Of a DNA stretch of 64,000 nucleotides, positions 19,715 to 47,739 are shown in pieces (positions within the stretch are counted from its first letter, which is position 1; the number at the start of each line of letters is the position of its first letter). The notes beneath the pieces were generated by a model. The model had not been told where the DNA came from. It did no database searches and was given only the letters and a program-made list of their open reading frames with translations. The translations under genes were made by a program, and so were the position numbers. The stretch comes from an uncultured Gemmatimonadales bacterium (GTDB taxonomy: Bacteria; Gemmatimonadota; Gemmatimonadetes; Gemmatimonadales; GWC2-71-9): contig CAVYSW010000003.1 of the NCBI GenBank assembly GCA_963771275.1, positions 96,001 to 160,000 on the forward strand, written 5' to 3'.

Positions 19715-21357
19715 ACATCTACCTCGACGTCGTCTCGCCGGCGGCGAAAGAGGCCGGCGACTACGCCAGCGTCTACGACCTGGAGAACCACGGCCTCACG
19801 AATCTCCGGCGGGTCTACTGGAACCTCCCGACCCCCGCGCTCTACGAGGAGGTCGTGTTCCGCTCGGAGGGCCGGCTCTCCCACCTGGGCCCGATCGTCG
19901 TCAGCACCGGGAAGCACACCGCGCGCGCCGCGGCCGACAAGTTCGTGGTGCGCGAGCAGACCACCGAGCAGCACGTCTGGTGGGGCCAGTACAACCGGCC
20001 GTTCACCGAGGAGAGCTTCAGCGCGCTGCACGCCCGCCTGGTGGGCTACCTCCAGGGACGCGACGTGTTCGTGCAGGACTGCTACGCCGGCTCCGACCCC
20101 GAGTACCGGCTGCCGATCCGCATCATCGCCACCCGGGCGTGGCACGGACTGTTCGCGCGCACGATGTTCCAGCGCATCCGGAACCTCGACCAGCTGAAGA
20201 AGCACGTCCCGGAATTCACCGTCATCGCGGCGCCCTCGTTCATGGCGTCCCCGATGATCGACGGCACGCGGACCGAGACGTTCATCATCATCAACTTCCG
20301 GGAGCGGCTGGCCATCATTGGCGGATCGGCGTACGGCGGCGAGATCAAGAAGACGATCTTCACCGTGCTCAACTTCCTGCTGCCGCTCCAGAGCGTGCTG
20401 CCGATGCATTGCTCCGCCAACGTCGGCGCCGGCGGCGACGTCGCCCTGTTCTTCGGCCTCTCCGGCACCGGCAAGACCACCCTCTCGGCGGACCCCAAGC
20501 GCGGGTTGATCGGCGACGACGAGCACGGCTGGAGCGACAACGGCGTGTTCAACTTCGAGGATGGCTGCTATGCCAAGGTGATCCGGCTGTCGCCCACGGC
20601 GGAGCCGCAGATCTTCGCCTGCACGCGCCGCTTCGGCACCATCATCGAGAACGTCGTGATGGATCCCCTGTCGCGGCGGCTCGACCTGGACGACGACATC
20701 ATCACCGAGAACACCCGCGCGGCCTATCCGCTCGACTACATCGAGAACGCGGTGCCCGAGCGGCGGGCCGGCCATCCCAAGAACGTCATCTTCCTCACGT
20801 GCGACGCGACCGGCGTGATGCCGCCGATCGCGAAGCTCACGCCCGACCAGGCGATCTACCACTTCATCTCCGGCTACACCAGCAAGATCGCGGGCACGGA
20901 GGTGGGCCTCGGCATCGAGCCCGAGATCACGTTCAGCACCTGCTTCGGCGGCCCGTTCATGGTGCACCACCCGTACAAGTACGCCGAGCTCCTGAAGGCG
21001 CGGATGGTCAAGCACGGCGTGGACTGCTGGCTGGTGAACACCGGCTGGACGGGCGGCCCGTTCGGCGTGGGCAAGCGCTTCAGCATTCACCACACGCGGG
21101 CGCTGCTCAACGCCGCGCTCGAGGGCAAGCTGGCCAAGGTGCCGTACAAGCAGGACCCGGTGTTCGGCTTCGCGGTCCCGGCGACCTGCGAGGGCGTCCC
21201 GGACTCGATCCTCGATCCGGCCAACACGTGGGGCAGCCGGGACGAGTACTTCCGCAAGTACGACGCGCTGGCGGCGCGGTTCATCGAGAACTTCAAGCTG
21301 TTCAAGGACGGGTGCCCGGAGCACGTGATCCAGGCCGGCCCCAAGCGGTTGAAGTAA
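19711..21357 (+). CDS. pckA: Phosphoenolpyruvate carboxykinase (ATP)
   Basis: YGGEIKK, MHCSAN, FFGLSGTGKTTLS, LIGDDEHGW and NFEDGCYAK. ATGA overlap with the aminotransferase. Confidence 0.97.
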   Translation: MNIYLDVVSPAAKEAGDYASVYDLENHGLTNLRRVYWNLPTPALYEEVVFRSEGRLSHLGPIVVSTGKHTARAAADKFVVREQTTEQHVWWGQYNRPFTEESFSALHARLVGYLQGRDVFVQDCYAGSDPEYRLPIRIIATRAWHGLFARTMFQRIRNLDQLKKHVPEFTVIAAPSFMASPMIDGTRTETFIIINFRERLAIIGGSAYGGEIKKTIFTVLNFLLPLQSVLPMHCSANVGAGGDVALFFGLSGTGKTTLSADPKRGLIGDDEHGWSDNGVFNFEDGCYAKVIRLSPTAEPQIFACTRRFGTIIENVVMDPLSRRLDLDDDIITENTRAAYPLDYIENAVPERRAGHPKNVIFLTCDATGVMPPIAKLTPDQAIYHFISGYTSKIAGTEVGLGIEPEITFSTCFGGPFMVHHPYKYAELLKARMVKHGVDCWLVNTGWTGGPFGVGKRFSIHHTRALLNAALEGKLAKVPYKQDPVFGFAVPATCEGVPDSILDPANTWGSRDEYFRKYDALAARFIENFKLFKDGCPEHVIQAGPKRLK

Positions 21358-21367
21358 GCATCCCGTC

Positions 21368-21447
21368 ACAATACGAACGAGCCGGACGGTGATAACGCCG
21401 CCCGGCTCGTCTTGCGCAGCAAAACTGGCTGCGGACTCGCACCCTGT
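21368..21447 (-). ncRNA. Putative small RNA (copy 1) with a 5' end antisense to the adjacent tRNA anticodon arm
   Basis: Downstream of a sigma70 promoter. Begins ACAGGGUGCGAGUC, then hairpin CGCAGC/GCUGCG (21415-21433) and a 13-bp terminator-like hairpin (21377-21410). Homolog at 47312-47389. Confidence 0.7.
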
Positions 21448-21453
21448 GGCACG

Positions 21454-21482
21454 ATGATAGGAAGAACGTAGTGCGACGTCAA
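21454..21482 (-). promoter_or_regulatory. sigma70 promoter between the tRNA 3' end and the sRNA
   Basis: TTGACG (21482-21477), 17-nt spacer, TATCAT (21459-21454). Confidence 0.8.
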
Positions 21483-21493
21483 CAGCACGGCGG

Positions 21494-21577
21494 TGCTGGC
21501 GGTGGGATTCGAACCCACAAGAGCCGAAGCTCCACAGGGTGCGAGCCTGTTGCGTTTGCCAGTTTCGCCACGCCAGC
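21494..21577 (-). tRNA. Class II tRNA with a tRNA-Leu-type body and anticodon CGC (Ala codon GCG)
   Basis: Acceptor GCTGGCG/CGCCAGC-A73. D arm GCG-AAACTGGCAAA-CGC. Anticodon arm ACAGG-CT CGC AC-CCTGT. Variable arm GAGC-TTCG-GCTC. T arm GTGGG-TTCGAAT-CCCAC. No encoded CCA. Confidence 0.9.
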
Positions 21578-21855
21578 ACCTCCACAGCGGCGAGCCACTG
21601 ACAACCCGAAGGCGAGAGACGGAGTACTCGCACCCGTTCCGTGCCGCGCGTCAAGATTGTGCGCTTTGGCCATGATCAGGGTTACCGATTCCTCGCCGAG
21701 ATGACCCGGATCGCGCCGGCGGGCAGGGCCGCCCCGGACCTTCGGGGCTGCCTCCAACCGTCCCGGCCTCCTACCTTTCCCGGCGAGTCGCACCATCGCT
21801 GCACGCGCACCCACGGAGGCTCGGTGACCGCCCGGTCCTTCCGCACGCTCCCGCC

Positions 21856-47311: not shown

Positions 47312-47389
47312 GCCGAAACGATGAGCCGGCTGGCTTTCGCCATCCGCCTCATTCGGCGCAGCGAAACCACTACGCAAATCGCAGTCCGT
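47312..47389 (-). ncRNA. Putative small RNA (copy 2), homolog of 21368-21447
   Basis: Begins ACGGACUGCGA. Hairpins GCGUAGUG/CGCUGCGC and AUGAGGCGGAUGGC-GAAA-GCCAGCCGGCUCAU, with compensatory changes relative to copy 1. Confidence 0.65.
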
Positions 47390-47395
47390 ACACAC

Positions 47396-47425
47396 AGCGT
47401 ACGCTCGGCCTGCCGCTGCGGTCAA
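47396..47425 (-). promoter_or_regulatory. sigma70 promoter between tRNA copy 2 and sRNA copy 2
   Basis: TTGACC (47425-47420), 18-nt spacer, TACGCT (47401-47396). Same position as in copy 1. Confidence 0.7.
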
Positions 47426-47436
47426 TGGCGGGGGGG

Positions 47437-47521
47437 TGCTGGCGGTGGGACACGAACCCGCACGAGGGCCGAAGCCCGGAGGCTTGCGAGACCTCTGCGT
47501 TTGCCATTTCGCCACACCGGC
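47437..47521 (-). tRNA. Second Leu-body tRNA with CGC anticodon; mismatched stems, probably chimeric or impaired
   Basis: Acceptor GCCGGTG/CGCCAGC-A. Anticodon arm GAGGT-CT CGC AA-GCCTC. Variable arm GGGC-TTCG-GCCC. T arm GCGGG-TTCGTGT-CCCAC. Confidence 0.8.
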
Positions 47522-47739
47522 ACCCCTTCGGTTGCGACGCGAAGTGGATACGTGCGGATGTCTCGCATCGGCCCCCGCCGATGCGAGCATCAACCATGGC
47601 AAGCTCGACGCCGATGACGCAGGACCTCGCACGCGCTACCGAGCCGCGCGCTCAGGCCGGCTCGCCCAGCGCAGCGAAACCGCTCCATCTTCGTCCGCCC
47701 CCCGCCGTTTCCGCCCGGTTCCCGCTACCTTTCTCCCTG

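Follow-up and report, generated by a model that had tools for sequence, protein, structure and literature searches.

The locus described here poses the question of why a bacterial chromosome should carry, just downstream of a transfer RNA (tRNA) with the body of a leucine tRNA and the anticodon of an alanine tRNA, a small RNA (sRNA) gene whose product is complementary to that same tRNA. The locus lies in a stretch of 64,000 nucleotides (nt), hereafter the window, which comprises positions 96,001 to 160,000 of contig CAVYSW010000003.1 from an uncultured Gemmatimonadales bacterium (assembly GCA_963771275.1). It is referred to as cassette c1 and occupies window positions 21367-21672 on the minus strand, where a conserved leader is followed by a class II tRNA, a sigma-70-like promoter, and a terminated sRNA of ~80 nt. 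Similar cassettes were collected from relatives and metagenomes, giving at least 76 distinct examples, and their comparison points to a tRNA and an sRNA that have changed in step. The reading to which we assign even odds (a probability of about 0.5), drawn from sequence comparison, is that the cassette mis-decodes the commonest codons by means of a leucine-charged tRNA under antisense control, most likely forming an RNA-only, toxin-antitoxin-like module.

Pairing and covariation of the tRNA and the sRNA

The predicted c1 sRNA begins with the A at 21447, 7 nt past its -10 box, and opens ACAGGGTGCGAGTC. A first-pass annotation of the window had described this start as complementary to the anticodon loop and 3' stem of the tRNA, and had reported a perfect inverted repeat of 14 base pairs (bp) extendable by U.G and C-G; both descriptions hold, the repeat lying at 21436-21449 and 21532-21545 and growing to 16 contiguous pairs with the two additions. 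The seed is taken as 21449-21434, a span that begins two bases before the predicted start; it is complementary to tRNA nt 31-46, which in c1 are the anticodon loop and the 3' strand of the anticodon stem. That annotation had missed a second block of complementarity, between 21429-21414 and tRNA nt 5-20, as well as the ~95-nt leader and three more cassettes and an orphan sRNA elsewhere in the genome. The sRNA had been proposed to act as a codon mimic directed at the anticodon arm, which was right about the arm and too narrow in scope, as the whole sRNA corresponds to an inverted copy of tRNA nt ~3-46 that has diverged and carries a small deletion. In the four intact cassettes of the genome, the full 5' half of the tRNA is predicted to pair with its own sRNA at -58 to -64 kcal/mol.

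Covariation was counted over the 19 pairs of the commonest register in a MAFFT alignment of 73 cassettes that had been fitted to no structure. The tRNA:sRNA duplex was paired in 92.2% of 1351 cells, compared with 71.3 ± 0.7% in shuffles, none of which reached the observed value (0/500), and 28.8-47.1% in controls with the register slid (as the sequences are related, none of the pairing or covariation figures given here is a true probability). Fourteen of the 19 pairs had changed on both sides, double changes occupied 266 cells vs. 77 ± 7 in shuffles, and the covariation score was 0.536, against 0.169 in shuffles and at most 0.142 in slid controls. The check that the first-pass annotation had suggested, covariation of the sRNA 5' end with the neighbouring anticodon arm, thus came out in its favour. 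In the same alignment, 98.3% of 1752 cells were paired for the cloverleaf; changes on both sides were seen in 13 of its 24 pairs, and its covariation score was 0.400 vs. 0.139. Judged by these changes, the fold of the cassette tRNA is under selection. Since duplex and cloverleaf draw on the same nucleotides (tRNA 24-42), they are alternative structures, both under selection.

In every one of the 76 cassettes, the downstream RNA complements the anticodon arm of its own tRNA, with longest runs of 23-26 contiguous pairs, and the seed follows each of the anticodons found (CGC, GGC, CAC, GAC, CTC, TTC, GTC, and GGT; the complement downstream of one TTC tRNA, for example, reads ACGTGAAAGGTCACTGCGT). 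Mean duplex energies over the 76 were -36.4 kcal/mol for cognate and -22.2 kcal/mol for non-cognate combinations, and the cognate sRNA ranked first in 39/76 and among the top three in 59/76 (permutation p ≤ 0.0002). Within the source genome, the energy matrix is diagonal for four of the five cassettes (-32.6 to -40.4 kcal/mol vs. -15.5 to -27.7 kcal/mol off the diagonal), and these predicted energies show the paralogous cassettes to be orthogonal pairs in four of five cases. The second block (tRNA nt 1-23) pairs strongly throughout the cassettes but does not tell cognate from other partners (-28.6 vs. -27.0 kcal/mol).

As a control, 129 ordinary tRNA-Leu genes from many phyla were compared with the 170 nt downstream of each; gapless duplexes of 12 nt or more occurred in 10 of them and never went beyond 13 nt, for which reason a chance inverted repeat was rejected. 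A pattern scan of the genome contigs returned, among the matches listed, 119 ordinary tRNA-Leu loci with an encoded CCA and no cassette. Further, the matches listed from a metagenome sample included 115 distinct class II tRNAs, for which a duplex was sought within 110 nt downstream. All 36 with sense, non-leucine anticodons had a duplex of at least 10 nt that covers the anticodon (at least 11 nt in 35; median 17), while two of the other 79 had a duplex of 11 nt, at unrelated positions in both cases and with none of the cassette features; these 79 were 78 tRNAs with leucine anticodons and one called “stop TTA,” read as a mis-registered tRNA-Leu(UAA). An attachment-site remnant was likewise rejected, since such remnants are direct repeats and the feature here is an inverted one.

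It is extremely improbable that the cassette is an inverted repeat at the DNA level, for example a hairpin, a recombination site, or a mobile-element terminus, and has no function in RNA-RNA pairing. The feature is indeed an inverted repeat in the DNA, and its presence is patchy, as described below. However, in the transcribed orientation G.U pairs outnumber A.C mismatches by 64 to 22, which speaks for RNA, and not a repeat in the DNA, as the object of selection; in addition, the predicted transcription start is also where the complementarity begins, the sRNA gene has a conserved promoter and terminator, recombinase or transposase genes do not recur in the vicinity, the arms diverge outside the pairing registers, and the register itself differs between lineages.

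A leucine-type tRNA with anticodons for other amino acids

The c1 tRNA is 86 nt long, has a long variable arm, and scores 57.8 bits against Rfam RF00005 (cut-off 29). Its anticodon, CGC at 21543-21541, reads the alanine codon GCG, its discriminator A at 21494 is followed by an encoded CC, and its nearest native relatives are tRNA-Leu genes (66% identity). According to the portions of the sources covered, the leucyl-tRNA synthetase (LeuRS) of E. coli requires A73 and a tertiary core made up of U8:A14, A15-U48, G18G19, A20a, and the T-loop and does not require the anticodon or the variable arm, and a C2-G71 pair blocks SerRS (PMC9976931); that LeuRS ignores the anticodon is stated in two of them (PMC9976931, PMC11028032).

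These identity elements were scored on 42 non-redundant cassette tRNAs derived from genomes. A73 and G71 are each present in 42/42, C2 in 40/42, U8, A14, and A15 in 41/42 each, G18G19 and U48 in 40/42 each, and the T-loop motif GGTTCGNNTCC in 42/42. G3:U70 in the acceptor stem, the major determinant for AlaRS, occurs in 1/42, and c1 has U3-A70 at this place. The anticodon loops are canonical, with 7 nt, A37 in 42/42, and Y32 in 39/42, and ACC is encoded after the acceptor stem in 41/42, with no CCA there in the native tRNAs inspected. The acceptor stem of 7 bp and the T stem of 5 bp co-vary as such, and a first look gave 1.3 bits per position for the anticodon stem vs. 0.4 for the acceptor stem.

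None of the cassette tRNAs (0/76) has an anticodon for leucine (NAG or YAA). The anticodons among the at least 76 distinct cassettes are CGC (26), CAC (19), GGC (12), CTC (6), GGT (4), TTC (4), GTC (3), and GAC (2), which belong to Ala, Val, Glu, Asp, and Thr, and never to Leu. The first-pass annotation had called the tRNA mismatched, and this was upheld by the combination of a leucine identity set with non-leucine anticodons. Standard tools annotate the cassette tRNAs as tRNA-Ala, tRNA-Val, and so forth (ARAGORN), labels that are very probably wrong. The genome has a normal tRNA-Ala(CGC) elsewhere and one clear LeuRS gene.

Codon use in the genome was estimated from 1116 long open reading frames (ORFs) of high G+C content at the third codon position (553,821 codons), an approximation made without gene calling. 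By this estimate, GCG is the commonest codon of all (69 per 1000), followed among the codons of cassette anticodons by GCC (rank 2; 54 per 1000), GTG (rank 5; 48.8), GAG (rank 6; 44.6), GAC (rank 7; 44.3), GTC (rank 13; 31.7), ACC (rank 18; 25.6), and GAA (rank 30; 6.7), so that three of the five codons used most often are read by the anticodons that are the three most frequent among the cassettes.

ARAGORN also called “tRNAs” of 83-98 nt at C1:6508, C3:818716, C3:951562, C8:5074, C10:157418, C10:536400, C10:841877, C6:102494, and C9:345501; these nine were considered as members of the group and set aside, as by sequence they look like false positives within GC-rich coding regions.

The sRNA gene and the leader

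The sRNA promoter of c1 consists of a -35 box TTGACG (21482-21477), a 17-nt spacer, and a -10 box TATCAT (21459-21454), with 10/12 matches to the consensus. Its -35 box begins 11 nt past the discriminator at 21494, as the first-pass annotation had placed it, and a promoter scan gave this single match in 1 kb, compared with 0.0 ± 0.1 in dinucleotide shuffles. The two hairpins that had been noted, the last of them terminator-like, correspond to hairpin 1 at 21433-21415 (CGCAGC/GCUGCG) and to a stem at 21408-21379, which is followed by a U-rich tail (21378-21367); the 86-nt c1 sRNA folds at -45.7 kcal/mol (z = -4.45). In the predicted folds of four further sRNAs of the genome (z of -2.9 to -4.4), a strong terminator and a 7-bp hairpin are accompanied by an unpaired 5' seed, most clearly in c3, c4, and c5. 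Across cassettes, 29/40 have a TAnnnT box whose end lies 2-8 nt ahead of the first paired base, most often at 6 nt (15 cases), and TTG opens the -35 box in 24 of those 29; the other 11/40 have deviant -10 boxes. These features indicate that the sRNA is a gene of its own with a conserved promoter and terminator. Rfam searches returned tRNA only, and no sRNA family, at gathering score over the 64 kb, and at E ≤ 5 over 361 nt they gave sub-threshold chance matches, such as PtaRNA1 (22 bits, on both terminator strands) and YrlA (15 bits).

An sRNA is present in the locus for 42/42 genome-derived cassette tRNAs, and the loci show an obligatory linkage that runs one way, the tRNA apparently needing a linked sRNA and the sRNA not needing a tRNA. 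Two tandem cassette tRNAs (CGC and CAC) with identical 17-nt trailers at locus L161 (G097:C89, 1380-2300, minus strand) were considered as exceptions without an sRNA and dismissed, as they share a single sRNA gene that lies between them, 245 nt and 195 nt away. Beside this gene, ~200 nt between the tRNAs resemble a coding-sequence fragment, and the locus is rearranged. Separately, an inverted repeat, CTCGGC ... GCCGAG, is frequent in the sRNA promoter region (L008, L010, L021, L164, L012, L151-L154, and others), where it brackets the -10 box in some cassettes (GCCGAGCTTATACTCGGC) and follows the -35 box in others; it could be an operator or a hairpin in a read-through RNA.

Upstream of the c1 tRNA, ~95 nt are conserved in an alignment of 21 cassettes. 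This leader has a hairpin in c1 (21642-21619) whose loop carries GGGTGCGAG (21635-21627), complementary to the tRNA anticodon loop; a stretch of the leader resembles an antisense of the D-arm, and its last three bases, GGT, pair with the discriminator and the following CC (ACC), with at least three such leader:tail pairs in 60/76 cassettes. A hidden Markov model (HMM) of the leader matches only the five cassettes in the genome, among them C3:117672-117585, which is window 21672-21585. In predicted folds of leader plus tRNA, the leader pairs with tRNA nt 4-42 in four of the seven cassettes folded, and a consensus fold of all leaders yielded no structure. We read the leader as a weaker copy, in cis, of the antisense function. 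A further conserved block, like GGAAYGRTGAC, lies 100-130 nt upstream of cassette tRNAs (window ~21690-21720 in c1) and is followed by a TAnnnT-like box ~30 nt later; it is a candidate promoter or regulator site of the tRNA transcript, with a spacing unlike that of sigma-70.

As no terminator was predicted between the c1 tRNA and the sRNA, read-through from the tRNA promoter is likely too. This read-through raises an alternative that we consider improbable, in which the cassette is a single structured precursor or a non-translational tRNA: the flanks would pair with the 5' half in cis, the antisense parts would keep the tRNA-like part from decoding, and that part would serve in processing or stability or as an off-ribosome leucine donor. 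The lowest-energy folds that join the leader to the tRNA in four of seven cassettes, the pairing of GGT with ACC in 60/76, and a C33 in 23/76 (see below) would all suit such a molecule. However, the sRNA promoter keeps a constant spacing to the beginning of the seed, the orphan sRNA gene described below has a promoter of its own, and one genome has a single sRNA gene that is separated from the tRNA it matches best; further, an off-ribosome tRNA would need neither anticodons that are for common sense codons and never for leucine nor canonical 7-nt loops with A37 in 42/42.

Copies and distribution

The genome contains five cassettes and one orphan sRNA gene; the features within the window are collected in Table 1. 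The first-pass annotation had reported the same layout at 47.3-47.5 kb, and a second copy, c2, does lie there, but it is degenerate and its cognate pairing is weak. The c2 tRNA has an acceptor-stem mismatch and an altered T-loop (TTCGTGT), with a score of 41.4 bits vs. the cut-off of 29, its boxes TTGACC (47425-47420) and TACGCT (47401-47396) fail the promoter scan, and its sRNA-like RNA (47389-47314) has hairpin 1, a terminator, and an eroded seed. The tRNA pairs with its own sRNA at only -19.6 kcal/mol (rank 32 of 42). Judged by these lesions, the c2 cassette is decaying. A 35-nt perfect palindrome, unique in the genome, is inserted in the c2 leader at 47557-47591 (GATGTCTCGCATCGGC...GCCGATGCGAGCATC), and a near-identical one stands in place of the 5' end that a cassette tRNA should have in a genome of the same genus (L027); the palindrome may be a derivative of the leader/tRNA-5' pairing or a small insertion element.

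Table 1. Features of cassettes c1 and c2 in the window.
Feature	Position	Strand	Basis
c1 leader	21578..21672	(-)	21-cassette alignment; leader HMM
c1 tRNA, class II leucine-type, anticodon CGC	21492..21577	(-)	ARAGORN; Rfam RF00005; identity set; cloverleaf covariation
c1 sRNA promoter, sigma-70-like	21454..21482	(-)	promoter scan; TAnnnT box position across cassettes
c1 antisense sRNA, ~80 nt	21367..21447	(-)	sequence; pairing; fold; covariation
c2 leader, interrupted by palindrome	47523..47654	(-)	leader HMM match C3:143654-143591; alignment
c2 degenerate tRNA, anticodon CGC	47434..47522	(-)	ARAGORN; Rfam, 41.4 bits
c2 promoter-like boxes and sRNA-like RNA	47314..47425	(-)	sequence; sRNA HMM, E = 4.2e-10

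The orphan sRNA gene (C5:15266-15336, minus strand; ~1500-1610 of locus L028) has a TTGACT -35 box, a -10-like stretch, hairpin 1, and a terminator, and has no tRNA upstream, where a protein-coding region ends. Its seed, GTCGAGTGCGAGTCC, resembles that of c1, and its best duplex with the c1 tRNA is -23.5 kcal/mol. This gene bears on the notion that the roles might be reversed, the sRNA being an effector that binds native anticodon loops or other RNAs and the tRNA-like RNA being a sponge or antidote. RNA toxins that act via tRNA supply are known (CreT), and the c1 seed could, by our reading of the sequences, pair over 8 nt with the loop and stem of the native tRNA-Ala(CGC). However, the c3 seed, read in the same way, matches a native tRNA-Ala loop over only ~5 nt, nothing else fits the seeds nearly as well as their own idiosyncratic anticodon stems, the full set of LeuRS identity elements would be superfluous in a decoy, and an orphan sRNA is what would be expected of an antidote and not of a poison, which makes a reversal of roles distinctly improbable.

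BLAST with the cassette gave matches in 15 of 41 genomes, these being the source genome and 40 relatives. An order-wide scan of 401 genomes for an exact tRNA pattern, in which ACC had to be followed by any base but A, gave matches in 20 (9/186 in family f1, 0/187 in f2, and 10/27 in f3), and the reversed pattern, used as a control, gave 0. Outside the order, a sample of 102 genomes of the phylum, scanned for the same pattern, yielded one match, which by its loop was read as an ordinary tRNA-Leu(CAA). Within the genus, no cassette was found downstream of the orthologous c1 flank in 4/4 genomes that hold the flank gene, and the closest relative of c1 (76-77% identity over the cassette) is located on a contig with a different neighbouring gene; cassette presence is therefore patchy even within the genus.

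Proposed mechanism and its alternatives

A model for the cassette can be outlined as follows. A tRNA derived from tRNA-Leu would have kept the requirements of LeuRS and would carry an anticodon matching one of the very common codons for Ala, Val, Glu, Asp, or Thr; LeuRS would charge it, and leucine would be inserted at such codons. Two antisense RNAs would act on the 5' half of the tRNA, namely the leader in cis and the separately transcribed sRNA of ~80 nt, whose single-stranded 5' end is predicted to start exactly at the complementarity. The sRNA would seed on the anticodon loop and stem (tRNA nt ~24-42) and zip through the D-arm and the 5' strand of the acceptor stem, capture probably being easiest on a nascent tRNA 5' half. 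As a duplex of ~40 bp cannot coexist with the cloverleaf, a captured tRNA would be unable to fold, be processed, be charged, or decode. Ribonuclease (RNase) P acts in tRNA processing and RNase III cleaves duplex RNA, and the duplex would probably be degraded, for example by the latter. If the supply of sRNA were to stop, the stable tRNA would escape and the proteome would be mistranslated, possibly in the service of addiction or abortive infection, with a trigger such as phage-induced shut-off or loss of the element. By analogy, a harmful stable RNA with a dedicated antisense RNA fits the logic of toxin-antitoxin systems. The fuller form of this proposal, a protein-free poison-antidote module with the tRNA as poison, a dedicated and fast-evolving sRNA and the cis leader as antidotes that unfold it, and paralogs whose anticodon stems have diversified to give orthogonal pairs, is put forward tentatively.

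Several points weigh against the cassette as a leucine-inserting toxin. Leucylation, leucine insertion, the mode of silencing, toxicity, and the biological role are all steps that we infer from sequence. ValRS, ThrRS, and GluRS read the anticodon, and some of the Val, Thr, or Glu cassette tRNAs could therefore be charged correctly or dually, so that the clear mismatches between anticodon and identity are those of the Ala versions only (38/76). C33 takes the place of the near-universal U33 in 14/42 of the genome-derived tRNAs and 23/76 of the larger set, where it may weaken decoding, although it may instead reflect selection for sRNA pairing (C33:G); it is commonest with CAC and GGC anticodons. 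The tRNA's own promoter was not identified in the 1 kb scanned, the sRNA promoter being the sole match. The leader tracks the anticodon weakly (-25.7 vs. -22.2 kcal/mol; rank 1 in 4/42). In addition, the neighbours of the cassettes are mostly housekeeping genes, with no clear mobile-element or defence-island context, and a strict exact pattern, which would miss diverged copies, gave 0 matches in viral contigs.

The main rival is a regulated mistranslation switch, in which controlled release of the leucine-inserting tRNA under stress would diversify or remodel the proteome, much like the deliberate mistranslation that has been proposed for tRNAProA. The structural evidence fits it equally well, and it would sit comfortably with chromosomal cassettes between housekeeping genes, with the conserved upstream block and the sRNA-promoter palindrome as possible regulatory sites, and with C33 in 23/76 as a means of tuning activity down; moreover, mistranslating bacterial tRNAs occur in nature, as described in the portion of the source covered (PMC10404621). 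However, replacement of Glu or Ala by Leu at the commonest codons looks too damaging to be useful, presence is patchy within the genus, a decaying c2 and an orphan sRNA better suit a selfish or defensive element, and several orthogonal copies per genome are hard to explain by physiology. We therefore regard a switch of this kind as unlikely, and favour the toxin-antitoxin-like module.

Comparison with known systems

The cassette appears new in kind. Nothing similar was found in full-text literature, from which subscription journals are mostly absent, and, together with the lack of an Rfam family for the sRNA, this is in keeping with the first-pass view of an undescribed family. The proposed module resembles RNA-RNA and type I toxin-antitoxin pairs in that a small unstable antisense RNA would neutralise a harmful gene product encoded alongside. 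In type VIII systems (SdsR/RyeA, CreT/CreA), the toxin is itself an RNA, and the cassette shares with them adjacent genes and a covarying pairing, a likeness that concerns pairing only; SdsR/RyeA is a cis-antisense pair on opposite strands, whereas the cassette encodes its partner in trans, from the same strand, in the form of an inverted and diverged copy. The antitoxin of a type I system is an antisense RNA against the messenger RNA for a small toxic peptide, whereas the covarying target here is the tRNA itself, and covariation at the RNA level accounts for the conservation (a conserved small ORF was not systematically sought). To our knowledge, no known toxin is a tRNA that acts by mis-decoding. 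In a T-box leader, a codon-like triplet pairs with the anticodon of a specific tRNA, and in the cassette sRNA, too, a codon-like triplet meets an anticodon. A T-box was nonetheless rejected, as there was no T-box match in either Rfam search, no antiterminator, and no downstream regulated gene; unlike in a T-box, the cassette pairing spans 17-23 nt and would unfold the tRNA.

Three groups of unusual tRNAs offer parallels, each as described in the portions of the sources covered. The nematode nev-tRNAs are class II tRNAs with Gly CCC or Ile UAU anticodons that are charged with leucine in vitro (PMC3333845, PMC4300185). Like the cassette tRNAs, they have a long variable arm and non-Leu, non-Ser anticodons and are potential leucine mis-decoders; they differ in being eukaryotic and, as far as those portions go, in having no known dedicated antisense RNA, whereas the cassette tRNAs are bacterial, have other anticodons, and come with a co-varying sRNA and a leader. 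Bacterial tRNAProA and ProRSx provide genetically encoded mistranslation (PMC10404621, PMC10365949; reviewed in PMC11415595). Here, too, the tRNA is natural and bacterial, with an anticodon and an amino-acid identity that disagree, but it is a class I tRNA-Pro served by a dedicated synthetase paralog, whereas a single LeuRS was found in the source genome, and the cassettes have no partner protein and would be controlled by RNA. Lastly, the allo-tRNAs of soil bacteria have an 8/4 or 9/3 acceptor/T geometry and serine identity, are often found near toxin-antitoxin genes, and in some cases caused cell death in E. coli (PMC5389517). They resemble the cassette tRNAs in being irregular, with diverse sense anticodons and an identity (Ser) blind to the anticodon, but the cassette tRNAs are of 7/5 geometry and Leu-type and have an obligatory antisense partner, “antisense” occurring 0 times in the covered text of PMC5389517; an allo-tRNA identity was rejected on the geometry. 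None of the three groups is known to have an antisense partner.

If the model is true, the cassette would provide the first case of a tRNA acting as a toxin and the first known case of a natural sRNA that silences a tRNA, and would represent a new kind of genetic element in which a tRNA, as weapon or switch, is under the control of RNA pairing alone. It would follow that natural small RNAs can target and unfold tRNAs, and that bacteria carry many genes for deliberate, codon-specific mistranslation. The collection offers at least 40 natural, mutually orthogonal tRNA-sRNA pairs for studying antisense invasion of folded or nascent tRNA, and such pairs could serve as RNA-only kill switches or tunable recoding tools.

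Neighbouring genes

Cassette c1 lies between a glycoside hydrolase gene and a convergent gene that ends at 21357 and is read, from its translation alone, as phosphoenolpyruvate carboxykinase; c2 is flanked by a PIG-L deacetylase gene on one side and by a cysteine desulfurase/MnmA pair on the other. No partner protein recurred, and no synthetase was found, among 12 flanking ORFs in the window and 135 ORFs flanking 37 other cassettes, which agrees with the protein-free cassette that had been proposed initially. Single PIN, Uma2, HNH, and HTH_37 genes also occur near cassettes and, like the kinase genes named next, were judged to form no pattern. Genes for Ser/Thr kinases (Pfam Pkinase) adjoin 5 of the 37 cassettes (L006, L030, L154, L157, and L178), which may just reflect the abundance of kinases in these genomes.

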